A DNA stretch of 64,000 nt, from contig JAGOQK010000001.1 of the NCBI GenBank assembly GCA_017991475.1, forward strand, positions 105,689-169,688. Direction: 5' to 3'. The notes beneath the pieces are model-generated. The model made no database searches. It saw nothing but the letters and a program-made list of their open reading frames with translations, and was not told the DNA's origin. The translations under genes were made by a program, and so were the position numbers. Within the stretch, counting starts at the first letter, position 1. The number at the start of each line of letters is the position of its first letter. Shown here one piece after another: positions 106 to 43,126 of this stretch. Source of the stretch: Minisyncoccota bacterium. Lineage in GTDB: Bacteria; Patescibacteriota; Minisyncoccia; Phycocordibacterales; PALSA-1337.

Positions 106-261
106 CTAGGAACGCTTCTTGTCGTTCGTGTCAGCTGGCGTATCCTTGAATGCTCCGCGAAGATGCTTGATTGCATCGACAATATTCCTCGACAATTCTG
201 GGATCTTCTTCGATCCGAACAATATCAAAAGTATCACCGCAATGATGATGATCTCCTTCAT
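106..261 (-). CDS. tatA: Twin-arginine translocase subunit TatA (51 aa; below the ORF-track size cutoff)
   Basis: Manual translation of the minus strand gives MKEIIIIAVILLILFGSKKIPELSRNIVDAIKHLRGAFKDTPADTNDKKRS. The N-terminal TM helix followed by FGxKKxPEL and an amphipathic helix is the TatA/E signature. It lies immediately downstream of tatC. Confidence 0.6.
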   Translation of the reverse strand: MKEIIIIAVILLILFGSKKIPELSRNIVDAIKHLRGAFKDTPADTNDKKRS

Positions 262-288
262 GCCTATATTTCCAAACATAGTATTGAA

Positions 289-1041
289 TTAAAAATTACT
301 AATAATTTCCTGCTTCCTAAATCTTGAATTTACAATAATTGTAACTTCGTAAAGAAGGATAAGCGGCAACGCCATTGCCATTAATGATAACCCGTCAGTA
401 GGTGGAAGTAAAGAAGTAAAAATGAAGATTATCAACACCGCCAGGCGCCTCTTCTTTTTCAAGAAACCAACATCAAAAAGGCCTACTCTGACGACAAGCG
501 AGACTACAATAGGAAACTGAAAAAGTACCCCAAGTAGCGTAGATGTGAGGATAATCTGAGATAGAAACATGCCAATATCCCATATATTCTGGACGCCAAT
601 GTGGACATTGATTTGAGCCAGTAATATCAATGCGTAGTACATGATCGCAAAACCATAGGCAAATCCAGCAAAGAATAATGCGAGAGCGATGGGGACCAGT
701 GAGAAAAAGACTCCCTTTTCCCTCCTTGTAAGTGCGGGTTTCAGGAATACGAACATGTGATATGCAAAAACGGGACAACTAACCAGAAAAGCAGTAAATA
801 GACCAATATTAATCGAGAGGTCTGCGAACTGAAAAGGTGAGGTGGTGGCAATAACTACATCCTGAATATCGAAGAATGAAAGTATGTACTTGAGTATCCT
901 ACTCGTCAAAAGAAAACCCGCGATAAAAAGCAGTGCAAATAGAATCGCAAGCTTATAGAGCCTCCCCCGTATATCCTCTAAATACGGGGTAAATTTTGAG
1001 ATGAAATCCCTTATCTTTTCCACGGTACTAGAATAGTACAC
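289..1041 (-). CDS. tatC: Twin-arginine translocase subunit TatC
   Basis: 250 aa, six predicted TM segments, and a TatC-like N-terminus (LEDIRGRLYK...). Size and hydropathy fit the TatC family. Confidence 0.75.
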   Translation of the reverse strand: MYYSSTVEKIRDFISKFTPYLEDIRGRLYKLAILFALLFIAGFLLTSRILKYILSFFDIQDVVIATTSPFQFADLSINIGLFTAFLVSCPVFAYHMFVFLKPALTRREKGVFFSLVPIALALFFAGFAYGFAIMYYALILLAQINVHIGVQNIWDIGMFLSQIILTSTLLGVLFQFPIVVSLVVRVGLFDVGFLKKKRRLAVLIIFIFTSLLPPTDGLSLMAMALPLILLYEVTIIVNSRFRKQEIISNF

Positions 1042-1229
1042 TACTATTCAGACATAATGAAGATATTGCTTCCTCCACCGGTAACTGCAGGTATTTCTGA
1101 ACAAAGAAAAGCGCCATTACTGCCGAGAAGAACATCATTGGGAATAAATGCTGGATTTCCTGCAGGAATTTCAACTAAGAAATCCTGGCCATCCCCTGTT
1201 TGTGCAAGAATATCAGTTATTGCCATATG

Positions 1230-2063
1230 TTATAAACCCAACTTCTTAGAAATCTTATTCTTCACCAATTTTTTCGCGAACGCCACGACTTCTTCAGTGG
1301 TCGTGCTCGTATTCGTCGGCGTTTCCAAGATAGGCGGCACCACTATGGCCGGACTCTCCTCGATTACAGTTGTATCCGAAGATGTCGCATTTGTGTCAGA
1401 AGGTGCTGGGGGTACGATAATTTCTGGGGTTGTCGTTGAAACATTCTGATCTGGAATCAGAATTTCGGGGGGAGTTGTAGTTGCGACTGGCGCAACACCC
1501 GGAAGTACACTACCCGGGGTCGTCGTGGATGTTTCAGTAGGTGGATAATTGAAAGTTGGAGTCGTTGTTGCTGTCGTCGACGGTGTAGTAGTTGACTGAG
1601 TTGTAGGTGTGGTTGTCGAGGTGACCACTGGAGGCGTTGTGGTGGATGTGTTGGTATTTGGGGCTGGATTGACCACTGCTGGGGTTGTGGTCGCGGTTTC
1701 GGTATTCGTCGGCGTTTCTGCTTCTTCCTCGACTGCAGCTGCCTCTTCTGTAGGCACGACGCCTTCAGCCTGCGGCACGATATTTTCAATTACTTTATCG
1801 ACTGCAACTTGCTGACTATCCTTACCATAGAGACTCTTGGGATCAAGTTTGATTATCTCTGCGAGTAACTCGTCTGGATCTGAGATCGAGTACACCATGC
1901 CCCCATAGGCAACAAATCGTGCCTCATAGCGAACTGCTGGTTCGTCAGGAAATGCCTTTGGTGCACAAATGATAGAATCACCGTCATTGTAGTAACCTGT
2001 CTGATCATAAACGACCAGTGTCGGATTATCTGTAAGTGCTTGTCCTTTTTTTAGATAAATCAT
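1230..2063 (-). CDS. Hypothetical protein with a globular N-terminal domain and a long Thr/Pro-rich low-complexity region (STTTP repeats)
   Basis: 277-aa ORF. Residues 1-100 look like ordinary protein; residues 110-250 are dominated by T/P/S with reiterated TTTP units; the C-terminus is a basic amphipathic tail (KKLVKNKISKKLGL). Confidence 0.55.
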   Translation of the reverse strand: MIYLKKGQALTDNPTLVVYDQTGYYNDGDSIICAPKAFPDEPAVRYEARFVAYGGMVYSISDPDELLAEIIKLDPKSLYGKDSQQVAVDKVIENIVPQAEGVVPTEEAAAVEEEAETPTNTETATTTPAVVNPAPNTNTSTTTPPVVTSTTTPTTQSTTTPSTTATTTPTFNYPPTETSTTTPGSVLPGVAPVATTTPPEILIPDQNVSTTTPEIIVPPAPSDTNATSSDTTVIEESPAIVVPPILETPTNTSTTTEEVVAFAKKLVKNKISKKLGL

Positions 2064-2092
2064 ATAGTTTTGTATTGAATAATTATATCATA

Positions 2093-4936
2093 TTACTGCG
2101 TCAACACTGCCCTGACTTTTAAATTATCCCCAAGAGATGCTGGAGTGTACCTAATGTAGGTTGTTTCATTTCCCTTGTCTGTCGTATTGTAAGCACCCCA
2201 AGATGTACCATCAGTAGATTTCTGCCATGTACCACTATTCGTACTAGTCGTGTAATCATCGAGCAGAAGATCTTCTGTGACTGCATTATAAAGTCTGATT
2301 CGTAACGTAGGAACTGTTCCACCGAAGGTAGTCGCAAATCTCCAAACAAACTGCTTGGCTGCAGCATTTGATTTTACGACTGATGGTTGATAGTGAGAAT
2401 CCGTTTTATTTACCGCATCATCATAGACGACGACTATACCCATAATACGAGCAGGTACACACGACCACCCTATCGTATCAAACTCAAACATAAACTGTAT
2501 TCGAGGTGAACTGGCAAGACTTGAAAGGTCGCCGTCACGTGGAACAAGTGACCATTCTCCAGTATCTGTCAAAATACCTTTTGTTCTGAAATATATCTGG
2601 TACGGTTCTGTATTCACAAGAATTTCTCCCGTGCCCAACTGATCAGTATGAAAAATATTCACACTACTAAATTGTGCACAATCTGTCGTATAAAGAGCGG
2701 GTGTTATAACTCGCTGATTTGTGGTTGCTGCATACGTGGAGTGTGCTGAAAATGGCAGTGCATACATCTGTGATAATGCCGCAGTCACACCATGCTTCAC
2801 AATATGAACAATACCATTCTGACTCCAGATAGATGCCAGCTGAGATGACGTACTGAAATGTGGTTCTGTGCCACTATTCCAATCGATTACATAGGCTGAG
2901 CCGGCACTAATAGTTCCCGCTGTCGAACTCAACGTGATTGAAGTTATAGAAGTAAAAGCAGAAATCGTGAACCATGAAACTATAGCTGTAGGATCAGTAG
3001 AACCAAAACCGATACGAAAGCCAACCATAGCAGCTGTAAAAAATGTATTAGTACCAGTAACTGCCGTACCAGAAACCGCAACAGTACCTGAGGAAATATA
3101 TGCATTACCGAGCGCAAGAATTTGATCTTGTTGTTTGTCGTCAACGCCCCAGATATGATCAAAGGGAGAACCACTCAGATCAGGATACTGGGTAACATAA
3201 TGTCTGAGACCTGTGGCTCCTGTGGTGAGCACAATGAGTCTATCCATTCCGTCTGCAATTTCCACAGAGCTGAGTGCTGATGATGCTGGAGTAGAACTGA
3301 CACCACCTGTCGGAATTTCAGCCAAATTCTCTGATATCCATCCATTATTCCCCGCATATATTCTGAATATTGAAGCACGATAGATACGAGTATGGGTGAC
3401 GAAATAGATAGAAATTATACCAGCACCTGGACCATGATTAAGTGTTCCAATTCTTCCGTTATTGACACCAGAAACTGTTCCGTTCACAAGCTGTGGACCC
3501 GTACAGATGACATCAGCCGAATCAACTATGAAATTTGCTCCTGCACCTATCGTTCCAGCCGATGATGAAAGTGTTATTGAAGTTGTTGATGAAAAAGCAG
3601 AAATTGTGTACCACGTAGTGACATTCGCAGGACTTGTCGTTCCAAAACCAATTTTCATTCCAACCATTGCAGCGGTGAATGTCGTTCCACTTCCTGTGAC
3701 AGCTGTTCCCGTCACCTCGACAGTTCCGGTGGTATAGTACTCAATTGACATGAGCATCTTACCAGAAGTAAGAACACCTGTTGCTCGCAGATTATAACGG
3801 TATACTTTCAAATAAGTTGATCCAAAACCATCTATTACATACGCGTAATGAAGACCCTTATTAATTTCAGGCTCTATTGTCAATCCACAAGGGGTGATAT
3901 TGGTAACCACATTTGCTGTGGTACCAGCATCTGAAAGCCAATAGACTGCCTTGATGTTATCCGTGGTTGTTGCAAATGCGACAGTAGTCGTACCATTTGT
4001 AGTAAAATCAGAATAATTTACACCCTTAACCAAGTGTAATCCACCATTTGCGGCGGTGGTAGCATTTGTTGTAGTGATAGCAAATCTCAATTCTTCAATT
4101 ACATACGAACTCCCTGCACTGACTGTTCCTGCTGTCGAGGCAAGCGTGATACCCGTCTCACTATCAATACTAGATATCACATACCACGATACGATGGCAG
4201 TAGGATCAGTAGAACCAAAACCGATACGCGCTCCGACCGCCAACCCTTCCGTTTGCCACAATGTATCAGTACCTGTAACAGCAGTTGCTGCTACTTCGAC
4301 AGTTCCTGTGGTGTGTAGATATCGAAGTGCTCTGAAACCACGAATTGTGTGCGCTGTTGCGGAATTGAGTGTGGCAGCAATAAAGCCTTTCCATGTATAT
4401 ACAGAAGTGGTTTTATTGTACTCATACATACTAATTTCTCTTGCAGCAACTGAAGCAATTGAATTTTCAATAAGAAATACCCAGTCTATCGTTGAACTGT
4501 AGGTCATGGCGTGCGGATACATCATGGGCGTGTTGTATACGACCACATAGGCAGTACCAGCCGTGACAGGAGTAGCACCTACCGAAGGTGATATAGTCAT
4601 CCCTGTTGTAGATGCGCGTGCTGTTATTGAATACCACGTAGTGATCTTCGCTGGATCATTTGAACCGAAACCGATAGACATACCTATCATGCTCGTCAGA
4701 AAATTTGTACCAGAACCAGTGACAGCAGTAGTAGTTACCTGTACTGTTCCTACAGTATCAACTACTTCCTGCATAGGAAGAGTAATTCCTACCGGCAGTG
4801 GGCCAACGAATTTGTCTTCAGGGTTTGAACCCGTATTCTGAATCATCAATGTACCCAAACACGTTTTTGTGTAGTCATAAGAAGCGATTGGTGTCGTCTC
4901 TCCGGTGAATGTATGTTTGACTGCGCGTAGTGCCAT
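2093..4936 (-). CDS. Giant repeat protein, paralog 3 of a tandem triplet (947 aa), function unknown
   Basis: The N-terminus (MALRAVKHTFTGETTPIASYD...GTLMIQNTG) and C-terminus (YIRYTPASLGDNLKVRAVLTQ) are conserved with the two upstream paralogs. Four internal ~75-aa repeats carry the motif GTVxVxGTAVTGxGTxF...IGFGSTDPTxIVSWY...ITLSSxAGT. No signal peptide. The stop/start spacing to the next gene is 1 nt. Confidence 0.8.
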   Translation of the reverse strand: MALRAVKHTFTGETTPIASYDYTKTCLGTLMIQNTGSNPEDKFVGPLPVGITLPMQEVVDTVGTVQVTTTAVTGSGTNFLTSMIGMSIGFGSNDPAKITTWYSITARASTTGMTISPSVGATPVTAGTAYVVVYNTPMMYPHAMTYSSTIDWVFLIENSIASVAAREISMYEYNKTTSVYTWKGFIAATLNSATAHTIRGFRALRYLHTTGTVEVAATAVTGTDTLWQTEGLAVGARIGFGSTDPTAIVSWYVISSIDSETGITLASTAGTVSAGSSYVIEELRFAITTTNATTAANGGLHLVKGVNYSDFTTNGTTTVAFATTTDNIKAVYWLSDAGTTANVVTNITPCGLTIEPEINKGLHYAYVIDGFGSTYLKVYRYNLRATGVLTSGKMLMSIEYYTTGTVEVTGTAVTGSGTTFTAAMVGMKIGFGTTSPANVTTWYTISAFSSTTSITLSSSAGTIGAGANFIVDSADVICTGPQLVNGTVSGVNNGRIGTLNHGPGAGIISIYFVTHTRIYRASIFRIYAGNNGWISENLAEIPTGGVSSTPASSALSSVEIADGMDRLIVLTTGATGLRHYVTQYPDLSGSPFDHIWGVDDKQQDQILALGNAYISSGTVAVSGTAVTGTNTFFTAAMVGFRIGFGSTDPTAIVSWFTISAFTSITSITLSSTAGTISAGSAYVIDWNSGTEPHFSTSSQLASIWSQNGIVHIVKHGVTAALSQMYALPFSAHSTYAATTNQRVITPALYTTDCAQFSSVNIFHTDQLGTGEILVNTEPYQIYFRTKGILTDTGEWSLVPRDGDLSSLASSPRIQFMFEFDTIGWSCVPARIMGIVVVYDDAVNKTDSHYQPSVVKSNAAAKQFVWRFATTFGGTVPTLRIRLYNAVTEDLLLDDYTTSTNSGTWQKSTDGTSWGAYNTTDKGNETTYIRYTPASLGDNLKVRAVLTQ

Positions 4937-4937
4937 A

Positions 4938-7373
4938 TTAATTTTGTGTTAAATGTGCCCTCACTGATATACCATCCGTAAGTGCCGAGGGGGTATATCG
5001 TATGTAGGTAATATCGTTGGTCTTATCGGTACTATTATACGCTGTCCAGCTAGCCCCGTCGTCTATTGATTTGTGCCATGTTCCATTGGCTGAAGCTGCA
5101 GTAGTATCAGTAAACAAAGACGCATCCGTCTCAGCATTAAATAATTCAATCTTCAAATTTGGAACTGTGCCACCAAACCCATGACAAAATCTCCATGCAA
5201 ATCTTTCATTTGTTGCATCGGAATGTACTGTCGAAAGCTGATAATGTGAGTCAGTCGATCCATCTTCATACGTCACAGCTATACGCATCACTCGTGCTGG
5301 TAGACATAATCTGCCGATAGTATAAAACTCAAGCATGAATTGAATTGCATTTGCTGGTGACACAGAACTGAGATCTCCATTCCCTTCAACGAGCACCCAG
5401 GAGCTGGTAGCATCTGACGCAATATCAGCAGTACGGTAGTACACCCGAAACGATTCTGGCGACAATCTGAGCTCACCTGATCCAAGATACCTATCTTCAG
5501 TCACAATCACTTGATCAAATTTTACACAACCTGCTGTTGCGAGCGATGGAGTGATGACACGCTGGTGATTTGCGGGTGATACTGAATATGCATAAGTGGC
5601 ATGTGCACCAAACGGTAATGAGTACATTTGGTTCAATTGGGCTGTTGCCCCATTCCTGGTAATATGAACGATACCATTACTCACATCCGCAGATAATAAC
5701 TGTGAACCTGTATTAAAATGAACCACACCTTGTGAGCTTAGAAGAGACTGATCTTGCTGTTTATCGTCAACACCAAATACATGATCGAAGGGGGTTGTAT
5801 CAGTGGCAGGATACCGCGTCACATACTGACGATACGCAGCGTTTGCAGCATACGTAGTAATCAACAATTTATCGATAGTCGGCATATACTGTACGTTTAC
5901 CATGTTTCCTGTCGCAGGGAATGTCGAGATTCCACCCGGAGGAATCTCCTGCCTGATATTTGCAGCTGTGATGAATGTCGTATTACCAGCTGTAATGAGA
6001 GAAACATCAACACAATAGAGTCGTGTGAGCGTTACAAAATATAAATAGGATGAGCCTGAACCTGGACCATGCGCAAGTGTTTCAACTGTGCCATTATTCG
6101 CTGAAAGGTTGGGTATTGTTCCTGTTACAGCTTGTGTTCCTGTACTGACAATATTTGCACCAGCGAGTGTCATCTTCCCTGCCGCAACAGCATCATTCGC
6201 CCTGAGATTATACTTGAATATGCGTGCATTTGTTGTGTTCGTACCGTTCAGAATATAAGCAAAATGACTTGTCTTACTTGTTTCAGCTTCCAAAGCCAAA
6301 CCGCTTGCTGCTGTGTTCGTAACTGTGGCCGCATCTGCAAGCCAGTACACACCTCTCTGATTATCGATATTACTCGCAATCGAGGGAAATGTGTTTCCAG
6401 CCGTCGTGAAGTCAAGGTGACTTGCTCCTTTAAGGAGAAATAGTCCACCGTTTGTTGATGTTGTGTTTGTAAGTGATATAGCAAACCTCAACTCCTCAAT
6501 CACATATGGGGTACCTGCAGGGACAACTCCAGGTGAGGTAGTGATGTTGAGGGATGTATCACTGGCAATAGCTCCGATCTGGTACCACTGAGTGATTTGG
6601 GTTGGATCCGTTGATCCAAAACCAATACGGGGACCGAGACCTCCAGCAACAGATGTTGAAGCAGTTCCTGCAGCTATACGATCAGCAACAAATGTTGTAC
6701 TTGTTCCCGTCACTGTACACGATGCGATGACGTAGTTTGCAGATGCGGCAATGGCGCTCGACGCACCAGAAACTGTAATTGAAAGTGTTGAGGTAAATGT
6801 GATGATCGGGTACCAACAATTGATCTGGGCTACGTTCGTACTCCCAAAACCAATCATTTTACCAACCATTGCTACAGTAAATGTGGTACCAACTCCAGTT
6901 ACAACACCCGTAACTGCGAGAGCAACAGAAGTTCCTGCTGCATAATAGCTTACTGGTGCTGCTACTGCGACGGTACCTGTTGTGTGGAGATAGCGGAGCG
7001 CACGAAAGCCTCTATTTATATTTGTAGCAAAAGGTGTCGTGGCAGTAATAAAACCATTACGAGTATAGACAGAATTAACCTTGTCATATTCATACAGAAA
7101 TATTCTTTTTGCGGCAGTGATAGAGTTTTCGAGCATGAATACCCAATCAACCGTAGAACTATAGGGGACTACGTGTGGAAACATCATAGCCACAGCTGTT
7201 GATTCTTCCATCGGTCTCGCTATCGCGACAGGAAGCGGTCCGACGAAATTCTCTTGTGGAGTCAAACCAGTTTTTTGCACCATCAAAGTACCCAAGCTTG
7301 TCTTGGTCGAATCGTATGAAGCGATCGGTGTAGTAGCTCCTGTGAAAATATGTTCGTTAACTCGTAGTGACAT
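4938..7373 (-). CDS. Giant repeat protein, paralog 2 (811 aa), function unknown
   Basis: Shares the N-terminal module (MSLRVNEHIFTGATTPIASYD), the central blocks (GFRALRYLHTTGTV; DDKQQDQ; LAHGPGSG; IQFMLEFYTIG) and the C-terminal module (YIRYTPSALTDGISVRAHLTQN) with the flanking paralogs. Confidence 0.8.
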   Translation of the reverse strand: MSLRVNEHIFTGATTPIASYDSTKTSLGTLMVQKTGLTPQENFVGPLPVAIARPMEESTAVAMMFPHVVPYSSTVDWVFMLENSITAAKRIFLYEYDKVNSVYTRNGFITATTPFATNINRGFRALRYLHTTGTVAVAAPVSYYAAGTSVALAVTGVVTGVGTTFTVAMVGKMIGFGSTNVAQINCWYPIITFTSTLSITVSGASSAIAASANYVIASCTVTGTSTTFVADRIAAGTASTSVAGGLGPRIGFGSTDPTQITQWYQIGAIASDTSLNITTSPGVVPAGTPYVIEELRFAISLTNTTSTNGGLFLLKGASHLDFTTAGNTFPSIASNIDNQRGVYWLADAATVTNTAASGLALEAETSKTSHFAYILNGTNTTNARIFKYNLRANDAVAAGKMTLAGANIVSTGTQAVTGTIPNLSANNGTVETLAHGPGSGSSYLYFVTLTRLYCVDVSLITAGNTTFITAANIRQEIPPGGISTFPATGNMVNVQYMPTIDKLLITTYAANAAYRQYVTRYPATDTTPFDHVFGVDDKQQDQSLLSSQGVVHFNTGSQLLSADVSNGIVHITRNGATAQLNQMYSLPFGAHATYAYSVSPANHQRVITPSLATAGCVKFDQVIVTEDRYLGSGELRLSPESFRVYYRTADIASDATSSWVLVEGNGDLSSVSPANAIQFMLEFYTIGRLCLPARVMRIAVTYEDGSTDSHYQLSTVHSDATNERFAWRFCHGFGGTVPNLKIELFNAETDASLFTDTTAASANGTWHKSIDDGASWTAYNSTDKTNDITYIRYTPSALTDGISVRAHLTQN

Positions 7374-7374
7374 A

Positions 7375-10026
7375 CTAGTAAAGTGTCAGCAATGATCTGA
7401 CTTTTATATTGTCAGGCAAGGTTGCGGGAGTATATCGAATGTATGTTGTTTCGTTTCCCTTATCTGTCGTATTGTATGCGACCCATGTCGTGCCATCAGT
7501 TGTTTTTTCCCAGGTACCCGCAGGAGTAGAGGAAATATCATCTACAAGTAATCCACCTGTCACCGCATCGAGAAGTCTTATTCTGAGTGTCGGTACAGCA
7601 GAACCAAATGCTGTAGAAAAACGCCAAGCAAATTGTTTGCTTGCAAGTACCGTCTTCCCTGCAGAGGGTTGATAGTGTGGATCAGTTGTATAATCATCAT
7701 ACAATACCGCGAGTGACATGATACGACCCGGAATCCCAAGAAGACTGATGGTGACAAACTCAAACATAAACTGAATATTAGAAGCTGGTGACAAACCAGT
7801 AAGATCACCGTCTGCAGCAAGCAGTGTCCATTCTCCACTATTATCTGTAATGCCGTTTGTTCGGTAATACGTAAGGATAGAAGCAGTCGGTACTCGAAAT
7901 TCTTCACTACCAAGGTGGTCAACTGTTGATAGTAGAACTCTCGTATACGCGGCACAATCGGGTGTTGAGAGAGTTGGAGAGATTATTCTTTGGTTTGTTT
8001 CTGACGCATGAACCCAATGTGCCGACAACGGTAGTGCATACAATTGACATAATGCTGCAGTTGTACCGTGTTTAATGATATGCGCAACACCATTTTCACT
8101 CCATACTGAAGTAATCTGTGATGCGGTGTTGAAGTGAATAGCTGTGTTTGGATCAGCTAGAGATTGATCCTGCTGCTTATCGTCAAGACCAAAGAATCGA
8201 CTAAACTGGTCACCGGCTGCATCAGGATACTTTGTGACGTAGTGCTTGAATGCCGTCGCACCTGTGGTAAGCACAATCAAACGATCGATAGCATCTGCAA
8301 TCTCAATCATATTGAGAGCTCCTGTCGCTGGGAAGGTACTCGCGGATCCTGGGGGGATCTCTGGGCGATTGTCGGATATCCAACCAAGATTTCCTGAATA
8401 TATATTTGATAATGCCGCTCGGTAAATACGGCTTGCTGTCACAAAATAAAGCGACAGCTCCCCAGCACCTGGACCATGATTGAGTGTACCGACACGGCCA
8501 TTGTTGGCACCAATCACAGTACCTGTGACGAGCTGATTTCCTGTACAAATGACGTCTGCACTATCGATAATGTACGATGAGCCGCCTGCAATGGTACCAG
8601 CCGATGAAGAAAGCGTGATTGATGTTGTCGAGCTAAATGACTCTATCGTGTACCAAGTGGTAACAGTAGCGGGACTAGTCGTACCAAAACCAATTTTCAT
8701 TCCTACCATCGTTGCTGTAAACGTAGTACCAGAACCCGTCACTGCTGTTCCTGAAACTCCTACTGTACCTGTCGTATAGTATGCAATTGACATCAGCATC
8801 TTACCAGAAGTGATCGTACCAGTCGCACGAAGATTGTACCTATACACTTTCATGAATGTTGCACCCACCCCGTCGGGTACATATGCATAATGAAGGCCTT
8901 TATTGATTTCTGGTAGCAGAGTAAGTCCACAGGCAGCTGTATTTGTAGCTACATTGGCAGTCGTTCCCGCATCACACAACCAATATACCCCTCGCTGATT
9001 GTCAATTGCACTTGCAATAGCGGGAAATGTTGTTCCAGCAGTTCTAAAATCATAAAAGCCCGCGCCTTTGAGTAAGAAAAGTCCGCTATTAGTAGTTGTC
9101 GTTGCTTGTGATATGGTGAACGCAAACCTTAGTTCCTCTATCACATAGGGCGTACCAGCAGGAACGACTCCTGGTGACGTGTTGAGGTTGAGTGATGTAT
9201 CACTCGCTATAGCTCCAATGTGATACCAGCTTGTGATCTGGGTCGGATCAGTAGAACCAAAACCGATACGGGGACCAAGACCTCCTACTGCTGCAGTAAC
9301 TGTCGTACCCGCGGCTATACCTTCTTCTACAAATTTTGTTCCTGTGCCCGTTACTACACACGAGGCAATAACATAGTTTGCAGATGCAGCGATGACACTC
9401 GATGCTCCAGAAACTGTGATTGAAAGTGTTGAGGTGAATGTAATGATCGGGTACCAGCAGTTGATTTGAGCTACGTTTGTACTACCGAAGCCAATCATTT
9501 TACCTACCATAGCAGAAGTGAATGTGGTACCTACACCAGTCACTATACCACTCACTGCAAGAGCCACAGAAGTTCCTGCGGAATAATAGCTCACTGGTGC
9601 TGCAACAGCGACTGTGCCAGTGGTATGAAGATACCGGAGAGCACGAAATCCTCTTGTTGTGTTCGCATTTGCGGCACTCGGCAACGTTGCAGTAATAAAA
9701 CCCTTCCAATTGTATGTTGATTTTGTCTTATCATACTCATACAAGAAAATTTCACGGGCTGCCGTTGCTGTCGCAAGGTTACGAGTCACAAAAACCCAGT
9801 CTATCGTAGAGCTATAAGTTAGGACGTGAGGATACATCATACCAAGCGCAGTAGTTTCCTCAGCTGGTCGTGCAATACCTACAGGGAGTGGTCCAGCCCA
9901 ATTATCCTCAGGATAGGTTCCTGATTTTTGGACCATCAACGTACCTAAATTTGTCTTAGTAGGATCATAAGACGCTATAGGTGTTGTGGGTCCGTTGAAT
10001 ATATGTTCGACTGCGCGTAGTGCCAT
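7375..10026 (-). CDS. Giant repeat protein, paralog 1 (883 aa), function unknown
   Basis: Same conserved N-terminal, central and C-terminal modules as its paralogs, and the same IGFGSTDPT..W[YF] repeat units. Its first ~330 aa are nearly identical to paralog 2. Confidence 0.8.
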   Translation of the reverse strand: MALRAVEHIFNGPTTPIASYDPTKTNLGTLMVQKSGTYPEDNWAGPLPVGIARPAEETTALGMMYPHVLTYSSTIDWVFVTRNLATATAAREIFLYEYDKTKSTYNWKGFITATLPSAANANTTRGFRALRYLHTTGTVAVAAPVSYYSAGTSVALAVSGIVTGVGTTFTSAMVGKMIGFGSTNVAQINCWYPIITFTSTLSITVSGASSVIAASANYVIASCVVTGTGTKFVEEGIAAGTTVTAAVGGLGPRIGFGSTDPTQITSWYHIGAIASDTSLNLNTSPGVVPAGTPYVIEELRFAFTISQATTTTNSGLFLLKGAGFYDFRTAGTTFPAIASAIDNQRGVYWLCDAGTTANVATNTAACGLTLLPEINKGLHYAYVPDGVGATFMKVYRYNLRATGTITSGKMLMSIAYYTTGTVGVSGTAVTGSGTTFTATMVGMKIGFGTTSPATVTTWYTIESFSSTTSITLSSSAGTIAGGSSYIIDSADVICTGNQLVTGTVIGANNGRVGTLNHGPGAGELSLYFVTASRIYRAALSNIYSGNLGWISDNRPEIPPGSASTFPATGALNMIEIADAIDRLIVLTTGATAFKHYVTKYPDAAGDQFSRFFGLDDKQQDQSLADPNTAIHFNTASQITSVWSENGVAHIIKHGTTAALCQLYALPLSAHWVHASETNQRIISPTLSTPDCAAYTRVLLSTVDHLGSEEFRVPTASILTYYRTNGITDNSGEWTLLAADGDLTGLSPASNIQFMFEFVTISLLGIPGRIMSLAVLYDDYTTDPHYQPSAGKTVLASKQFAWRFSTAFGSAVPTLRIRLLDAVTGGLLVDDISSTPAGTWEKTTDGTTWVAYNTTDKGNETTYIRYTPATLPDNIKVRSLLTLY

Positions 10027-10047
10027 ATGATTGAATAAAAATACAAA

Positions 10048-10749
10048 TTAAACTTCCAAATAATCTATGTTTATCTGGACTGTAGTCGTACCAGATATCA
10101 CACAGTATAACACCTCATCGATACCTCCCTCGATATAGTTTGGGTGGTTATTTGCACCATACAATCCTCCTGCTTTAGGAGAAACGTACTTTTCATGATC
10201 GGTACCACCAGATGTAAAGCGGAATGATACCGAAGTAGCATCAGCGGTCAATGAAAAACGTGAAGCATACACGCGGATCTTGTTGCCGGATCCTGGTGTG
10301 AGCACATTGCCTGACGCGGCAAGATTAATGGAGAGCTTAGTTACCCCTTGGCCTGTAACCAGTGAGGACAACGTTTCTTCAGTCGCAGGATTTATTCGAT
10401 CGTTGCTTGCGTCCTTAACGCCAACCACGCTCGATGATGGTGTACTACCCATCACCAAGGCTGATGCTTTATTCGGAAGGAGCTGCGATGCCACCACGCC
10501 GGCGCCTGCAAGACCGAGCGCCTTAAGAAAGAATCTCTTGTTGTTGTCAGGGACTGCAACCGTAGAAATATCTCCAGATGAAATACCTGGTGCGGTGTTT
10601 GTAAGCTCCCTCACGGGCTCAACAACACTCTCCCGTATGAAGCGGAATGAATGTTTATTTGTAAGCATAAAAAGCGATGGGCATTTCTCCTTAATTATCG
10701 TCGAAATATGCTTTTGTCGCAAGGCTATTTTTGCCCTGCTTATCCACAC
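10048..10749 (-). CDS. Hypothetical exported protein with a Tat-like signal motif (KRFFLKALGLAGAGVVAS...ASA); start codon uncertain
   Basis: 233-aa ORF. About 60 residues in from the annotated start it contains NNKRFFLK followed by a hydrophobic Ala/Gly-rich h-region and an AxA site. An in-frame GTG about 24 codons upstream of the motif is an alternative start. It is the first gene of the operon that ends in tatC-tatA. Confidence 0.55.
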   Translation of the reverse strand: MWISRAKIALRQKHISTIIKEKCPSLFMLTNKHSFRFIRESVVEPVRELTNTAPGISSGDISTVAVPDNNKRFFLKALGLAGAGVVASQLLPNKASALVMGSTPSSSVVGVKDASNDRINPATEETLSSLVTGQGVTKLSINLAASGNVLTPGSGNKIRVYASRFSLTADATSVSFRFTSGGTDHEKYVSPKAGGLYGANNHPNYIEGGIDEVLYCVISGTTTVQINIDYLEV

Positions 10750-12628: not shown

Positions 12629-13519
12629 TTATAGCTCCTTCTCCGCTTCAATAAACTCATCAATCTCCCCTTCAAGTACCTTGTCCACTTGCGCAGTCTC
12701 TAAGTTAGTTCTATGGTCTTTTACCATTTTGTACGGATGTAGCACATATGAGCGTATCTGATTGCCCCATTCGATGGCGGTTGTCGATGATATCTGCATA
12801 CCGCGCTCCTTGGCAATACGAGCGTCTTCCATACGCTTCCAGAGCTTGCCTCGAAGAATGTCGAGTGCCTTCTCGCGATTTTGGGCCTGTGATCTCTCCG
12901 AAGTGACATGAATAGAAATACCCGTCGGCGTGTGAACCAACCTCACCGCAGTTTCGCGCTTGTTCACATTCTGGCCACCGGGGCCGCCCGATTTTGCTAT
13001 AGATATTTCGAGATCGCTGTCAGGAATCACCAAGTCGCTCGCAGAGGTCTTTTCAAATTTAGGAACGACTTCGACCAGAGAAAAAGACGTATGCCTTTTC
13101 TGATTTGCATTGAATGGCGAAATACGAACGAGACGATGGACGCCCGACTCATTCTTGAAAGAACCATATGCATTTTTACCAGAAATTTCGATGGTAATAT
13201 TACGATATCCTCCGTGATCATTTTCATTGCTATGAATGACTGACCATCCCCACCCTTTACCGTCAGCGTACTTGCGATACATCCGCACGAGTATGGCTGA
13301 GAAATCCTCTGAGTCATCACCCCCGGCACCAGAAAGCACGCTCATGATAGCGTCACCCTTGTCATACTTCCCTACGCCTTCTAGCTCATCCTTGAGCCGC
13401 TGAAGTTCCTTGACTGATGCTTGAGCTCTGACTTTGTCTACCCAAAAATCAGCATCGCCCATAGACGCTTCAAGTTCGACGATTTTCTTCTCTATTTCTT
13501 CTTTTTGGTTGATAGACAT
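12629..13519 (-). CDS. prfB: Peptide chain release factor 2 (296 aa; N-terminally short form, no programmed frameshift)
   Basis: GGQ motif ([11 protein letters not shown]) and the RF2-specific SPF tripeptide ([15 protein letters not shown]). Start trimmed to the MSINQ Met, because the longer ORF extension runs antisense through tRNA-Thr. Confidence 0.85.
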
Positions 13520-13527
13520 AATTCGAG

Positions 13528-13600
13528 AGCCGAAGCCCGGGATCGAACCGGGGACCCTTGCTTTACGAAAGCAATGCTCTACCAACTGAGCTACTTCGGC
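13528..13600 (-). tRNA. tRNA-Thr (anticodon CGU)
   Basis: Manual cloverleaf: acceptor GCCGAAG/CTTCGGC, D-arm GCTC-AGTTGGTA-GAGC, anticodon arm TTGCT-TTCGTAA-AGCAA, T-arm CCCGG-TTCGATC-CCGGG. Confidence 0.8.
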
Positions 13601-13693
13601 ACCGCTTCGCTCTACGCCATACTCCGAGCTTCGCAGTGCAGGCAATAAATAACCAAGCTTGCACTTCGAAGCTTGCGCAGCTTAGCGAAGAAG

Positions 13694-19041: not shown

Positions 19042-19632
19042 TTAATAACTCGTTGTGAGACGGAGCGCACGCTCGACAGTACGCGTACTTGGGAGCGGTC
19101 CTAACGCATCGCACTGATTGTAGCCGCGAGAAGAGACTCGAACGACATCGTCTGATGTACGAGCATCCACGCCGTATGCAACTGTGACGATCGCGCATGG
19201 AGGATTGACCTGTCCATCCACGCCGAGCGGATGCACAATAATATCTCCCGACTGGGTTATCTCAGTCCCCTCCCACAATGTAGTATCAGGATTTGAGATC
19301 TCTTCGAATGCGCCGTCGGCGACGTGAATGTTTCCATTACAATCGAGCTCAGGAGTTCGTAATGTGGTCTCATCGACTTCGGTCATAGTGAATCCTTTTC
19401 CGAGATCGGTATTGTAGTTGAGTTCGCGAGCCGCACACTCCATCGCACCATCAGCGGCATAGAGGGCGTACATGGATTCGCGAGCAGCGACCGAAAGCGC
19501 GAATTGTTTCTTGCTAACTCCGAGAATGAACACTCCAACACTGAGGACAAGCGATGCAGTGATCACCGCGAACAAGAGAGTGTATCCCTTCTCTGTGCGC
19601 TGTCTCGAATTGTGTGTGTGATGGATAGTCAT
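19042..19632 (-). CDS. Type IV pilus minor pilin-like protein (PilX-like; N-terminal TM helix without a canonical cleavage motif)
   Basis: N-terminal basic stretch then hydrophobic helix (KGYTLLFAVITASLVLSVGVFILG). Last gene of the pseudopilin series. Confidence 0.5.
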   Translation of the reverse strand: MTIHHTHNSRQRTEKGYTLLFAVITASLVLSVGVFILGVSKKQFALSVAARESMYALYAADGAMECAARELNYNTDLGKGFTMTEVDETTLRTPELDCNGNIHVADGAFEEISNPDTTLWEGTEITQSGDIIVHPLGVDGQVNPPCAIVTVAYGVDARTSDDVVRVSSRGYNQCDALGPLPSTRTVERALRLTTSY

Positions 19633-19641
19633 ACTGATATA

Positions 19642-20205
19642 TTACCTGCGTACGGCGACCATAGTGCTTACGAGATGGATCTCGAACGGTATCGTCCCTT
19701 GCATCCAGTTCACCGTCACATGAGCCTGTACCTCTGGCATAAGGTGTGTACCTCCTACATTCTCCAAATAGAACTTTCGTGAAAATTCCGTCATCGTACC
19801 GCCGGCACTCGAGTCGCTCGTATACCCATCGTCATCGGAGTAATATACCGGGCAGCCTTCCGACGGACAATCTGTAGAGATCATGTACGATCCGATTCCA
19901 TTAGCATCGCAAGGATCATTTTCCGTACAACTACCGATCCCCGTGAGCCACTGTGCCGCGATATCGTCTGCGTCATAAATATTATTATCGTGAATATTCT
20001 TGACGACCTCCATACTTTCTTGTGCCAAGAATGACGCAATCATCTGGTTCTTGGAATAGAGAGCGGCCGTAAGACCCTTGGTCGCGATGACGAGCGGCCC
20101 AGCGATCGCGATCATCAAGATTGCGACTGCGACGAGCGTCTCTACGAGCGTGAAGGCTCGGGCGCCTGTGATTGAACGATGTGTTGTATGTTTGCGAATA
20201 CTCAT
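19642..20205 (-). CDS. Prepilin-type N-terminal cleavage/methylation domain protein (pseudopilin)
   Basis: GARAFTLVETLVAVAILMIAI, the class III signal (G/AFTLxE). Confidence 0.7.
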   Translation of the reverse strand: MSIRKHTTHRSITGARAFTLVETLVAVAILMIAIAGPLVIATKGLTAALYSKNQMIASFLAQESMEVVKNIHDNNIYDADDIAAQWLTGIGSCTENDPCDANGIGSYMISTDCPSEGCPVYYSDDDGYTSDSSAGGTMTEFSRKFYLENVGGTHLMPEVQAHVTVNWMQGTIPFEIHLVSTMVAVRR

Positions 20206-20207
20206 GA

Positions 20208-20879
20208 TTACTGCGCAACGTGCGGCGCTACACTAGTCTGAACATTGAAATATGTCTTCTCGCGCTCCTTGGTGCCCGCATAGCCTGATATACGGATCGT
20301 TGCGAGAGGATACTCACCCGCATCCTCGACATTGAGATAGTACCCCACGACCTTGAGGTTACTATCAAGAATAGAGATGAAGTCTCCGTCACTTATCGGC
20401 TCTGCACACTCTACCTGCTCTGCTTTCCGTAGTTCATATGTGTCATCTATTGGCACGAAGCGGTACGCTATTGCTCGTGCACATGAAGTGGAACCTTCGA
20501 TGATACGGCCCGCTCTGAATACCAGAGTAGCATCAGATGACTCACCAATCGCCCTACAACCACCAGCATCAGTGAGCGAATCTCCTGAATAGTTTGCAAC
20601 ACCACCGATCTCGCAGGTATAAGCACCTCCTGTGCGCATCTCGCGCGACATCGCATCGAGAGCAAAATTGAGGTTGGTGATAGACGTCTGCAATGTCTGT
20701 GCTTTCCTATTCGCAGACACGATCTTGACCAATGCGCCGAGTGCGACAACGGCGACTACCGAGAAAACCGCGAGCGAAACAATCATCTCGACAAGGGTGA
20801 ATCCTCGAGGTGGAGTGACTACTTCTCGATTAATTATATTTTTTTTAAACAATGATGAAGGCATGTATAGATGTACCAT
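20208..20879 (-). CDS. Prepilin-type N-terminal cleavage/methylation domain protein (pseudopilin)
   Basis: RGFTLVEMIVSLAVFSVVAV motif. Confidence 0.7.
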   Translation of the reverse strand: MVHLYMPSSLFKKNIINREVVTPPRGFTLVEMIVSLAVFSVVAVVALGALVKIVSANRKAQTLQTSITNLNFALDAMSREMRTGGAYTCEIGGVANYSGDSLTDAGGCRAIGESSDATLVFRAGRIIEGSTSCARAIAYRFVPIDDTYELRKAEQVECAEPISDGDFISILDSNLKVVGYYLNVEDAGEYPLATIRISGYAGTKEREKTYFNVQTSVAPHVAQ

Positions 20880-21527
20880 TTACTCCTCAAGCCCAGAATC
20901 ATTAACACTTATCTGACCATTCTTTCTTATAGAAACGAAGCGGTAGTCACCTGACGGACTGCTAATCATAATTTGTGCCGTAATAATTAATCCACACCTT
21001 CCAGCTACACTCCCATTATAAGAGCACATCTGAGCACTTGGATCTGGGCGCTTAAATACAACATCAAACGATGAACCTACGTTGAAGCACTGCGTCACAC
21101 ATGCAACACTATCACAACAAGTTGCAGCAATATCTAATATTCGTACCCCCCCTCTCAGTGTTGAATATGAAATTTCCTCTCCTTGATCATATATGCCATT
21201 TGCATTCAAATCAGAAAATGTGACGATTGTTTGGCTATTTGGAATATTTGACAACTCATTTATTTGTTCACCTATTTCACGAATAGAAAAATTCACTCCA
21301 TAAGCGTTGTTGAAGCCGCCCGAGTCATCACTCCTCACACTCAATCCATACGTCTGCGCCGTACGGATCGCCAGCGCCACATCATATGCAGCATTGGTGA
21401 GCAGGACGTTGTTGTTGAAATTGCCATACTTCGCCACCACGAGCGTAGTCATGAGAGCGAAGATGCTGATCGAGACGAGAAGCTCGACGAGTGTGAATGC
21501 GTGCGTATGTTTTCGAGAGCGGAACAT
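20880..21527 (-). CDS. Prepilin-type N-terminal cleavage/methylation domain protein (pseudopilin)
   Basis: HAFTLVELLVSISIFALM motif. Confidence 0.7.
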   Translation of the reverse strand: MFRSRKHTHAFTLVELLVSISIFALMTTLVVAKYGNFNNNVLLTNAAYDVALAIRTAQTYGLSVRSDDSGGFNNAYGVNFSIREIGEQINELSNIPNSQTIVTFSDLNANGIYDQGEEISYSTLRGGVRILDIAATCCDSVACVTQCFNVGSSFDVVFKRPDPSAQMCSYNGSVAGRCGLIITAQIMISSPSGDYRFVSIRKNGQISVNDSGLEE

Positions 21528-21578
21528 GGGGATAGTATATCACAAGACCCTAGCCGAGGTGGAACCTCGGTTGACATT

Positions 21579-22376
21579 TCACTGAAAAATGATTTCTTTT
21601 AGTAAGTTGATATCGAGCACTTGTATCTGGAACAAGAGCACGAGATACATCCCAAGAATGAGATACGGGCCAAACGGCACCTCGGTTCTCGGTTTGAATT
21701 TCTTGTAGGTGACAAAAAGCCACACGAGACTGGCTGCTGCTGCGATCCAGAACGCCAGTATCATCGCATTGATGGCACCTGAAACGCCCAAAAACCACCC
21801 TATACCGAGCATGAGCTTGGCATCGCCCAATCCCATCCACTTACCCCGAGAAATGAGCCAAAGCACTGCAAATGGCGTAGCAGCAAGCGGACCCGCGATG
21901 AGTGCCCAGTACCCCGGGATATGCCACCATGAGGACCCTCCTACGAAGAGGCTCAGAAGTGCAGCGGCAGAAAACGCATACGAGAAGCTATCTGGGATAA
22001 TCTTGTGCTTGATGTCATAGACGCAAATAACCAGGAGAAGACATGCGGCAATGACGTGAATGAGGGTGACGACAGCTACTAGAGCATCGAATGGCGGAAA
22101 AGTCAGAAAAATCAACACAAATATTACTCCAGCCATGAATTCGACGAGTGGATACTGCCACGAGATCTTGCTCTTACACTTCTTGCAAGCCCCTCTTTGG
22201 ATCAAGAAGCTGAAAACAGGAACCAATTCCTTCCAAGTAAGCCCTTCTCCGCACGACATACACTTGGATCTACCCCCGAGCCCTACCCCGGTATTGAAAC
22301 GAAGCGAAACGACATTGAGGAAACTACCGACGATAGCGCCGAATATGAAGGAAATGAGGAGCGAGAGCGGGGTCAT
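21579..22376 (-). CDS. pilD: Prepilin leader peptidase / N-methyltransferase (A24 family)
   Basis: Polytopic membrane protein with a cytoplasmic tetracysteine motif (CMSC...CKKC) and conserved GLGDAKL in the peptidase domain. Confidence 0.85.
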   Translation of the reverse strand: MTPLSLLISFIFGAIVGSFLNVVSLRFNTGVGLGGRSKCMSCGEGLTWKELVPVFSFLIQRGACKKCKSKISWQYPLVEFMAGVIFVLIFLTFPPFDALVAVVTLIHVIAACLLLVICVYDIKHKIIPDSFSYAFSAAALLSLFVGGSSWWHIPGYWALIAGPLAATPFAVLWLISRGKWMGLGDAKLMLGIGWFLGVSGAINAMILAFWIAAAASLVWLFVTYKKFKPRTEVPFGPYLILGMYLVLLFQIQVLDINLLKEIIFQ

Positions 22377-22395
22377 CTGAGACTAAGGAAATGAA

Positions 22396-22929
22396 TTAAT
22401 TTGAAGAAATACAATACTGATAGAGGGGGCTTCCGCTCTCACCCTCATCCTTACACGCATCTACAAAAGTGCCTGACCACACACCAAATTCACTATCTAT
22501 ATCATCTTGCAGAGCGACGCTTTTTGATTCCAGCACCGTACGCAGTATATACGCATCTACCGTGGCACCGTTTGTATGCACGATATATTCATAGTTATCA
22601 GATCCGCCCTCAGCTTGAGGTTCGGGGCTTTTTGGTATCGTAGGAAGGAAATTTCCGAGAGTTATGCCTGATGGGCACCTATCACTTCCATTATCGCTTA
22701 AATCTAAATATGTATCCATCGTTGGGTAAGTCTTACATCTATCATAGAAAAGCTCGAGCGCCAGCTGTATCTGACCAAGATCTGATACCCTCTTTGCGTC
22801 TCTGGCCTTCGCCTTGGGTCCAGTGAGATTGGCCATGACAATACCAGTCAATATTGCGATGATTGCGATGACGACGAGCAGTTCGATGATGGTGAATGCG
22901 CCTTTAAAATTTTTGAGAGATTTTTTCAT
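22396..22929 (-). CDS. Type IV pilin (177 aa)
   Basis: MKKSLKNFKGAFTIIELLVVIAIIAILTGI, the canonical GFTxxELLVV prepilin signal. Start trimmed to that Met. Confidence 0.8.
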   Translation of the reverse strand: MKKSLKNFKGAFTIIELLVVIAIIAILTGIVMANLTGPKAKARDAKRVSDLGQIQLALELFYDRCKTYPTMDTYLDLSDNGSDRCPSGITLGNFLPTIPKSPEPQAEGGSDNYEYIVHTNGATVDAYILRTVLESKSVALQDDIDSEFGVWSGTFVDACKDEGESGSPLYQYCISSN

Positions 22930-23051
22930 GGGTTTATTGTAGCACAGTCGAAGAGTAACAACTGGGGATGAGCGGTAACAACGCATTTCCCCGCATATAC
23001 AAAACCACCCCTCGGGTGAGGGGTGGTGATTTATACTGAGAAACGACAATA

Positions 23052-23471
23052 CTAGTTACAAGCTGTTGTATCAGCACCCTTGGTAGCCGACTGTGAACCT
23101 GCAAATCCTGAACTATCGACACAGAAGAATGATGTTGCACCACTTCCTCCAAGATCTGTTGACATGTTAACTTCAGCAGCCCATGCGGCAGTATCCTCAT
23201 CACAGTTAACTGTTGCGGTAGTCAAATTTTCCACTGCGGTAACGAGAGTTACCAATCCAACTGTACAAAGATCTGCAGGATACTGACCAGCAGGTGTAAC
23301 AACGAGCTCAGCAGCGGATCTCATACTGGTCATGCTTCCAATTGCAGAAGCCGCCTGACCCTTTGTCCTTGCACTGTTAAGAGAAACCAACACAACTGAT
23401 GACAAAATACCAATAATCGCGATAACGACGAGCAATTCGATAAGAGTGAAACCTCTTGTGTACTTTTTCAT
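23052..23471 (-). CDS. Type IV major pilin PilA-like (139 aa)
   Basis: MKKYTRGFTLIELLVVIAIIGILSSVV prepilin signal; small size and Cys near the C-terminus, typical of a major pilin. Start trimmed. Confidence 0.8.
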   Translation of the reverse strand: MKKYTRGFTLIELLVVIAIIGILSSVVLVSLNSARTKGQAASAIGSMTSMRSAAELVVTPAGQYPADLCTVGLVTLVTAVENLTTATVNCDEDTAAWAAEVNMSTDLGGSGATSFFCVDSSGFAGSQSATKGADTTACN

Positions 23472-23607
23472 AATATGAAAGTTACGAATAATTATTAATA
23501 CTATGCTAATAACACCCCTTCTCTGAACAATAAGGTTTGTTGGAGTAATTATACCACCCACCTAGTAGACCCTTATAAACATAATGTGGATAACTACTCC
23601 CCACCCC

Positions 23608-34014: not shown

Positions 34015-34054
34015 CTAGTGCCTGTGCATAATTTGGAAATTTACCCGTTCGTTG

Positions 34055-34141
34055 CGGAGAGAGTGGGATTCGAACCCACGGTTCTCTTGCGAGAACGGCG
34101 GTTTAGTAAACCGCTGCCTTAAACCACTCAGCCATCTCTCC
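34055..34141 (-). tRNA. tRNA-Ser, type II (long variable arm), apparent anticodon ACU
   Basis: Acceptor GGAGAGA/TCTCTCC, discriminator G73, anticodon arm GCGGT-TTACTAA-ACCGC, 19-nt variable arm, T-arm GTGGG-TTCGAAT-CCCAC. Confidence 0.7.
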
Positions 34142-34226: not shown

Positions 34227-34313
34227 GGAGACGTGGTGGAGTGGTCTAACATACCTCTTTGCTAAAGAGGCAGGCCTTAACGGGCCTCGAGGGTTCGAAT
34301 CCCTCCGTCTCCG
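34227..34313 (+). tRNA. tRNA-Ser (anticodon GCU), type II
   Basis: Acceptor GGAGACG/CGTCTCC, anticodon arm CCTCT-TTGCTAA-AGAGG, long variable arm, T-loop TTCGAAT, discriminator G. Confidence 0.8.
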
Positions 34314-34384
34314 CAACACCGTTTGCTCAGCCTGAGATGTGCGCTATGATATCACCATACTAGCCTAGATAACCTCATATCATC

Positions 34385-39929: not shown

Positions 39930-40016
39930 GAAGTGATTATATCACTCCACATGAGAATCTGCTGGGGACAACCCGAGATGCGTCATCTCGGAGCAGTCCT
40001 CCGGAAGGACAACCTG

Positions 40017-40090
40017 TCCGCCCTCTTGGATTCGAACCAAGGACCCCAGAGGTATAAGCTCTGTGCTCTAACCAACTGAGCTAAGGGCGG
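40017..40090 (-). tRNA. tRNA-Ile (anticodon UAU)
   Basis: Acceptor CCGCCCT/AGGGCGG, D-arm GCTC-AGTTGGTT-AGAGC, anticodon arm CAGAG-CTTATAC-CTCTG (TAT at positions 34-36), T-arm CTTGG-TTCGAAT-CCAAG, discriminator A. Confidence 0.75.
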
Positions 40091-43120: not shown

Positions 43121-43126
43121 TTGTTG

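Follow-up and report, generated by a model that had tools for sequence, protein, structure and literature searches.

What does a bacterium of the Minisyncoccota export when its genes for twin-arginine translocation (Tat) stand in one row with three giant proteins devoid of any signal peptide, and where did these proteins come from? The row lies at one end of a 64,000-nucleotide stretch of the 172.6-kb contig JAGOQK010000001.1, part of a metagenome-assembled genome (positions 105,689 to 169,688; here called the window). The original prediction, made from the sequence alone, had described eight consecutive minus-strand genes tied to a dedicated Tat translocon, and the table of open reading frames (ORFs) of the window, on which our gene coordinates are based, bears this out: eight consecutive minus-strand ORFs, separated by spacers of 1-29 nt, extend from position 106 to about 10.7 kb. 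In order they encode S206 (10048..10668), a 206-aa precursor predicted to combine a long Tat-type signal with a jelly-roll domain; the giant paralogues G883 (7375..10026; 883 aa, 93 kDa), G811 (4938..7373; 811 aa, 86 kDa, two inserted modules) and G947 (2093..4936; 947 aa, 100 kDa, four inserted modules); TP277 (1230..2063), a 277-aa Thr/Pro-rich protein; s60 (1044..1226), an acidic conserved 60-aa protein; then tatC (289..1041, 250 aa) and tatA (106..279, 57 aa). Our comparisons show that these genes form a conserved, Tat-linked unit whose products are probably exported to the cell surface. We give an even chance to a more precise reading, the most likely one, in which a domesticated phage virion-surface module leaves the cell by the Tat pathway, with S206 as the carrier and the giants as hitchhikers.

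The Tat components are recognized by standard profiles. TatC matches PF00902 (E 3e-36; 125.6 bits for a cut-off of 25.1) and TIGR00945 (E 1e-31; 110.7 bits, under the equivalog cut-off of 132.7), and TatA matches PF02416 (E 2.4e-12; 46.3 bits, the cut-off being 21). One TatA-family gene is present in the cassette of the window and one or two in those of relatives, with no separate TatB in the cassette. That the eight genes make a single operon rests on their spacing and synteny, because a promoter and terminator scan gave match counts in the window no better than in shuffles. A weak sigma-70-like match (TTGCGA-17-GATAAT, 10694..10722, minus strand, 9/12 match), which falls within the 92 nt that separate ftsX from the ATG of S206, is a hint only.

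The predicted signal-bearing protein exists, but not with the 233 aa first assigned to it, a length due to a GTG-started ORF over-extended to 10749. Since the NCBI model KBC33_00630 and about 190 orthologues all measure 202-217 aa, S206 starts at the ATG at 10668 and is 206 aa long. Alignments place the signal in residues 1-70 (10459..10668, minus strand), where an N-terminal SFR motif is followed by a variable n-region, a KR motif, a weakly hydrophobic h-region and a c-region with an AxA site. The motif reads D-x-N-K44-R45-F-F-L-K49 (10522-10539, minus strand), so that the window has N-K-R-F-F-L-K in comparison with the Tat consensus (S/T)-R-R-x-F-L-K. The prediction of a Tat-type signal is supported, the arginine pair reading K-R in this genome. 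The h-region, ALGLAGAGVVASQLL, is mildly hydrophobic and the c-region is P-N-K-A-S-A. In the orthologue alignment, an invariant D-x-x-[K/R]-R-x-F-[LIVM]-K precedes a Gly/Ala-rich h-region, P-x-K-A-x-A and then about 135 aa that make up a highly conserved domain; A68 is kept in at least 90% of the orthologues, A70 is invariant and the Lys of the c-region is conserved.

A census of 191 S206 orthologues found the motif in 187 of them, with KR in 174, RR in 13 and near variants in the remaining 4. Such interchange of KR and RR at one position matches what would be predicted for a Tat motif, and single-arginine Tat signals have been reported as tolerated (PMC3827258). The Tat-signal profile TIGR01409 scores 17.4 bits on S206, for a cut-off of 16.7, and S206 is the sole ORF with a Tat-like N-terminus in the 64-kb window. 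Anchoring of S206 as a lipoprotein was considered and rejected, the alignment showing no Cys near the cleavage site.

The mature part of S206, modelled as a viral-type jelly roll of about 14 kDa, is the most conserved piece of the cassette. Its median identity to the window protein reaches 80%, compared with 62% for TatA, 48% for TatC, 49% for s60, 39% for the N-domain of TP277 and 51-71% for the giants. This conservation would fit a hub that touches both the translocase and the cargo.

The giants are mutually 61-66% identical, and most of the differences between them come from blocks of about 75 residues that one has and another lacks. As predicted, none of the three carries a signal peptide, and they are also free of transmembrane segments. 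The layout of G883 comprises a conserved N-terminal region of about 57 aa, a predicted six-bladed beta-propeller with three inserted modules of about 75 aa, and a C-terminal beta domain. Repeat analysis counts four module copies in G947, three in G883 and two in G811, at differing insertion points. According to the jackhmmer domain table (all on the minus strand), those of G883 span 8536..9573 and occupy aa 152-230, 227-306 and 418-497 (9337-9573, 9109-9348 and 8536-8775); those of G811 are at aa 145-226 and 223-301 (6471..6941); and those of G947 span 2864..4756, at aa 61-137, 209-291, 402-481 and 615-691 (4526-4756, 4064-4312, 3494-3733 and 2864-3094). In the structural model, calculated for G811, six four-stranded blades surround an axis, as in a six-bladed beta-propeller, and we consider the giants as probable large all-beta propellers with inserted domains.

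Searches of Pfam and NCBIfam returned no match for the giants, TP277 or s60, and only the weak Tat-signal match for S206; neither NHL nor any other sequence repeat family was detected in the giants with these collections. Comparison with the PDB by sequence and profile gave sub-threshold matches only (the P2 gpV spike to the module, E 0.03-0.06; HIV protease, E 0.3), which we took as noise. The giants are also old paralogues and mosaic: G883 is nearest to G811 over the first 1 kb or so (63-83% nucleotide identity) and nearest to G947 over the rest (62-75%). Nucleotide identity between the paralogues is at most 83%, and the mosaic pattern suggests old recombination between them.

The two small proteins of the cassette were each characterized by alignment of 50 orthologues. 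TP277 has a conserved N-domain of about 95 aa, a variable, acidic, low-complexity tail rich in Thr, Pro and Glu, and a basic C-terminal end (AFAKKLVKNKISKKLGL in the window), such a basic end being frequent among the orthologues; it has no signal peptide. The 60-aa ORF, s60, proves to be a genuine conserved gene, whose product opens with MA(L/I)xDI and closes with GGGxNIFIMSE, of which NIFIMSE is invariant.

Is this gene order a peculiarity of one genome? In a scan of one genome per species, with loci annotated by tblastn and then by profile hidden Markov models, S206 was found in 70 species-level genomes, all labelled as Patescibacteria apart from some automated mislabels, and with differing flanks. 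The order S206 - giant - TP - s60 - tatC - tatA recurs, the giant being directly 3′ of S206 wherever the DNA reaches. Where enough downstream DNA is available, each locus has tatC, one or two copies of tatA and homologues of TP277 and s60; a few loci have their tat genes just upstream instead, and in one locus the cargo is swapped. Exact protein look-up retrieved the identical eight-gene order, among quite different neighbours, in a Zambryskibacteria metagenome-assembled genome and in a 300-kb JGI contig. The arrangement is thus far beyond chance. The proposed association of the unit with a dedicated TatAC and a Tat-type substrate holds in each of some 50 informative loci, and the genes, whose order the original prediction had wished to see compared among relatives, are not scattered but linked to tatAC in all informative loci of the 70 species-level genomes. 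The usual number of giants per genome is one, of 707-890 aa. Three in tandem occur in one subclade only, which groups the window with loci L001, L002, L005, L010, L014, L019, L050, L054, L063, L069 and L072.

The question of origin was addressed by scanning IMG/VR with the giant alignment and annotating the viral contigs with PHROG and Pfam. Six viral loci were found at first and about 50 once viral sequences had been added to the alignment. These contigs measure 4-379 kb, some being of jumbo-phage size, with GC contents between 31 and 63%. Viral giants are full-length: the 57 aa at the N-terminus are present, as are a single module, the propeller and a C-terminal domain ending in TYIRYTP, with 36-53% identity (49-53% to the window giants for that of L084). 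Tail-fibre and sheath-like genes surround the giant in L074, while in L078 it accompanies a terminase, a protease-capsid fusion and a portal. In L084, L152 and L153, terminase and portal+Mu-F genes are followed by genes for an S206-like protein, a giant, a TP-like protein of 63-64 aa and an s60-like protein, then for a protein of about 410-430 aa, which matches head-maturation-protease PHROGs in L084, and for an HK97-type capsid; a tail tube gene is present in L152. A Phage_holin_4_1 gene lies directly 3′ of the module, between the portal and capsid genes, in L152 (14105-14557) and L153 (13865-14317).

The phage S206-like proteins, of 351-471 aa, align with S206 over their last 130 residues or so, and their N-terminus is a coiled-coil plus hydrophobic region without a Tat motif. 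The phage homologues of TP277 consist of the N-domain only, and those of s60 are directly 3′ of the giants. An exhaustive profile search recovered many long proteins of this kind, devoid of a signal and with the S206 jelly roll as their last part; a viral scan with patterns specific to the candidate phyla radiation (CPR) yielded one further locus only. Neither tatC nor tatA occurs in any of the viral loci examined. Negative results were also obtained by tblastn of G811 and S206 against cultured GenBank phages, without a match, and by hhalign, in which the S206 profile showed no relation to the small proteins encoded upstream of phage giants or to the conserved C-terminus of the L074 tail fibre. 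The window TatC and TatA do match two function-unlabelled PHROGs, phrog_36238 (E 1.6e-14) and phrog_29532 (E 0.0017), and some phages accordingly encode Tat-like components.

Within the giants themselves, the inserted modules are what PHROG families recognise. G947 matches the N-terminus of the tail-fibre PHROG phrog_1591 in three stretches (E 1.2e-17); phrog_1591 and phrog_1980 match only the modules of about 75 aa of G947 and G883, and G811 has no PHROG match. Together with the 50 or so viral giants and with phage homologues of the S206 jelly roll, the TP277 N-domain and s60 in the same order, these matches contradict the initial view that the locus has no recognisable phage motifs, and a CPR-specific origin is not borne out either. 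Beta-propellers are known among phage tail-fibre and receptor-binding proteins, for example in the K1E/K1F endosialidase tailspike, and jelly rolls among cement or turret proteins. The cassette resembles such virion-surface proteins by the full architecture of the giants, found in structural gene blocks at 36-53% identity, by the PHROG 1591 modules and by the modelled jelly roll of S206; it differs by having no match in cultured phages of GenBank, by its cellular flanks and by a Tat signal in place of the phage N-terminus.

As the same order exists in L084, L152 and L153 without Tat motif or tat genes, the four proteins are a unit independent of Tat. By homology and synteny, the ancestral unit is a set of four phage genes, encoding a jelly-roll protein, a beta-propeller of about 700 aa, a protein of about 63 aa and another of about 60-110 aa. 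Sequence comparison shows that in Paceibacteria the jelly-roll protein has lost a phage N-terminus of about 200 aa and gained the long Tat-type signal, that a minimal tatC-tatA pair has been fixed at the end of the operon, and that the small TP protein has acquired its Thr/Pro-rich tail and basic end.

What is constant in this cassette and what is exchangeable can be seen where the giant is missing. Locus L036 (9998-14807) keeps S206, an s60-like protein ending in NIFIMSE, tatC and two tatA; instead of the giant it encodes a phage-type protein of 144 aa (phrog_5417, E 2e-21), another that is rich in Pro and Glu, and two paralogues of about 268 aa. In phage L154, a 475-aa protein takes the giant's place. 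A sister family, here called N-type and recovered by the exhaustive profile search, shares the S206-like signal and the first mature motif, GSTPxSxVVGVKxxxNxRINPATE, and continues with another C-terminal domain (LRRxVKLMESQA ... ARNxYANGIRxNLxFS), the NPATE motif being kept. Its cassettes, in metagenome loci L133, L135, L138-L140 and L148 (proteins P0268-P0310), are flanked by tatA and tatC; in L138 the N-type neighbours are a signal-less repeat protein of 888 aa and a protein that resembles a glucosaminidase and has a Pro/Thr-rich tail. Judging from L036, L154 and the N-type cassettes, the signal protein and TatAC behave as a platform that stays the same, whereas the large proteins without a signal behave as cargo that can be exchanged.

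Neither half of this combination is entirely new, and to call it an arrangement not described before was too strong. In Bacillus subtilis, the phoD-tatAd-tatCd operon encodes a Tat substrate together with the tatA-tatC pair that serves it (PMC3827258), and signal-less partners are known to be co-exported with a signal-bearing subunit by hitchhiking (PMC4273604). With the B. subtilis system the cassette shares a two-component TatA-TatC without TatB, a monoderm-type cell and a substrate in the operon (PMC3827258). Unlike PhoD, a phosphodiesterase, the substrate in the window would be a 14-kDa phage-derived jelly roll; its motif is mostly KR, and the cassette adds 2.4-8 kb of signal-less giants. 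E. coli HybO/HybC, DmsA/DmsB and PaoABC offer the second parallel, with a small subunit carrying a long signal, adjacent large signal-less partners and an expected pre-transport complex (PMC4273604, PMC6708511). However, these hitchhikers are cofactor redox enzymes with dedicated proofreading chaperones, whereas the cargo of the cassette is virion-derived and belongs to no cofactor family, and its co-export is deduced. Tailocins, extracellular contractile injection systems and Photorhabdus virulence cassettes (eCIS/PVC), and gene transfer agents are likewise phage virion genes fixed in the chromosome and reused by the cell; they keep a tail or capsid and leave by lysis or dedicated routes, while the cassette keeps a four-gene surface module coupled to Tat. 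It thus combines a dedicated Tat operon, hitchhiker export and the domestication of phage genes: a substrate with its own tatAC is already known, but the cargo and its origin are without precedent. The searchable literature on Paceibacteria mentions TatA and TatC, and names no substrate and no such cassette.

How could such a system work? As the giants are signal-less, devoid of transmembrane segments and apparently large all-beta propellers with inserted domains, the cargo would need export in folded form. The giants would fold in the cytoplasm, possibly with the TP277 N-domain and s60 as helpers or complex partners, and each would dock on an S206 precursor, giving a 1:1 pair of about 100-114 kDa. 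The co-encoded TatC would then recognise the S206 signal and TatA let the folded complex pass, the giant riding as a hitchhiker, before signal peptidase cuts S206 after AxA. Outside the cell, the propeller and its tail-fibre-type modules could bind a host cell or a surface glycan, with the Thr/Pro-rich protein possibly acting as a wall-spanning tether. With three paralogues, the window genome would have a single carrier for three different binding specificities. We consider a role at the surface or as an adhesin, after export, the best reading of the cassette.

Several points weigh against this proposal. Export, complex formation and surface location are all deduced by comparison. The motif of the window genome is KR, and TIGR01409 is barely over its cut-off. 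A 1:1 pair of 100-114 kDa lies under the Tat cargo limit of about 150 kDa (PMC6708511), but the three giants with S206 add up to about 294 kDa, more than known Tat cargo, and fibre-like trimers would likewise be too large. No Tat proofreading chaperone is recognisable in the cassette, and there is no obvious anchor to hold the complex on the cell after AxA cleavage. Finally, the phage module is found in the head-gene block in L084, L152 and L153, and between tail-fibre genes in L074; since the phage setting of the family thus differs between loci, the adhesin function is extrapolated.

The best surviving alternative, which we nevertheless consider unlikely, is that only S206 uses TatAC, the giants, TP277 and s60 being cytoplasmic or leaving by lysis, vesicles or an unrecognised signal. 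The absence of any signal in the giants and their summed size above known Tat cargo (PMC6708511) would agree with this, as would the fact that the phage module works without Tat, a holin adjoining it in L152 and L153. The operon would then link proteins that meet only outside the cell or never, although the adjacency of S206 and giant in every genome and in phages argues for a physical partnership. It would also be hard to explain why reduced genomes of 70 species maintain 8 kb of cytoplasmic beta-propellers in a Tat operon; cargo swaps leave S206, s60 and Tat constant.

Quite unlikely in our view, the giants could instead be exported enzymes, such as glycan-degrading or lactonase-like six-bladed propellers, which would use Tat for folding loaded with a cofactor or metal. 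The structural matches of the giant share 7-12% identity, with NHL, PknD and lectin propellers scoring alike. No catalytic family was found in Pfam/NCBIfam, catalytic motifs such as Asp-boxes not being searched for. We have strong doubts about a third possibility, an anti-phage device, in which a chromosomal copy of a phage receptor-binding module, displayed on the cell surface, would mask the receptor or act as a decoy for phages with the homologous module, as in superinfection exclusion. The nearest relatives of all four proteins are indeed phage genes, with the L084 giant at 49-53% identity, and the numbers of copies and modules differ between lineages. Yet S206 is under strong purifying selection (the median identity of 80% noted above) rather than in arms-race divergence, the GC content of the homologous phages spans 31-63%, and no defence neighbourhood is visible in the annotated flank of about 14 kb, where PADLOC was not run.

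As for a decaying prophage fragment or functionless moron incidentally adjacent to tatAC, the phage homologues of the four non-Tat proteins do not save it from being extremely improbable, because all ORFs are intact, the order is kept beside tatAC in 70 species with differing flanks, S206 gained a Tat signal that the phage versions lack, and the flanks are cellular (FtsX, FtsE, release factor, tRNA cluster, GatA, LigA, pilins, prepilin peptidase and PilC), with no other phage gene within the annotated 14 kb or so and no capsid, portal, terminase or tail genes at the window locus; a prophage remnant at this place was therefore rejected on cellular flanks and conserved synteny. The combination of phage homology and flanking phage genes, which had been put forward as the competing account of the locus, is hence real for the homologues elsewhere but not for the window, fixed beside tatAC among cellular genes.

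The surroundings of the cassette provide some further observations. Type IV pilus genes (a pilin with an N_methyl motif, a prepilin peptidase and PilC) are found at 19042-24819 of the window, at most about 9 kb away from the cassette, and in L002 (1-9238) T2SSE, T2SSF and pilin genes are directly upstream of it. Their vicinity may represent a neighbourhood of surface or attachment genes. On the other side, which for the window lies beyond its edge, large proteins with Dockerin type I domains are encoded directly 3′ of the tat genes in L002 (20487-22880), L036 (14839-17292) and L138 (16415-18085); these loci otherwise differ, and MG2 is also matched in L036 and L138.

Among the other genes of the window, the release-factor gene (12629-13645) has PCRF and RF-1 domains in a single frame of about 296 aa from MSINQ and looks N-terminally short, the PCRF match beginning at profile position 74; a longer TTG-started ORF is spurious and overlaps a tRNA-Thr (13527-13600). 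ARAGORN identified a tRNA-Ile with anticodon TAT (UAU) at 40016-40090, an uncommon bacterial way to read AUA. Two divergent tRNA-Ser genes (34054-34141 and 34227-34314, 86 nt apart) have the anticodons ACT, which is unusual, and GCT. A tmRNA gene at 43124-43491 (RF00023, 98 bits) encodes the tag peptide AKSTVSPYFGAKDFAFVPA.

The cassette defines four previously unannotated protein families, which dozens of Patescibacteria share with numerous uncultured phages, and offers a clean case of a cell recruiting a virion surface module via a gained export signal. The Tat genes are here in physical linkage with a single substrate family, the cargo being a binding module of phage type. If hitchhiking of propellers of about 90-100 kDa is true, the cargo range of a minimal TatAC widens. 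A bolder extension, possible but on balance doubtful, is that Paceibacteria, and other Patescibacteria via the N-type cassette, keep Tat essentially for themselves to launch surface structures that derive from phages and are folded beforehand. A virion module captured from phages and given a Tat signal, with a jelly-roll base, a propeller fibre and two small assembly proteins, would then constitute an organelle of host recognition or attachment, whose specificity would be set by paralogue expansion and cargo swapping. If so, bacteria would have a surface appendage of a new class, and Tat a new biological use. Host recognition by CPR bacteria is little known beyond type IV pili, and to this question, as to why reduced genomes keep a two-gene Tat system, the cassette offers a testable answer.

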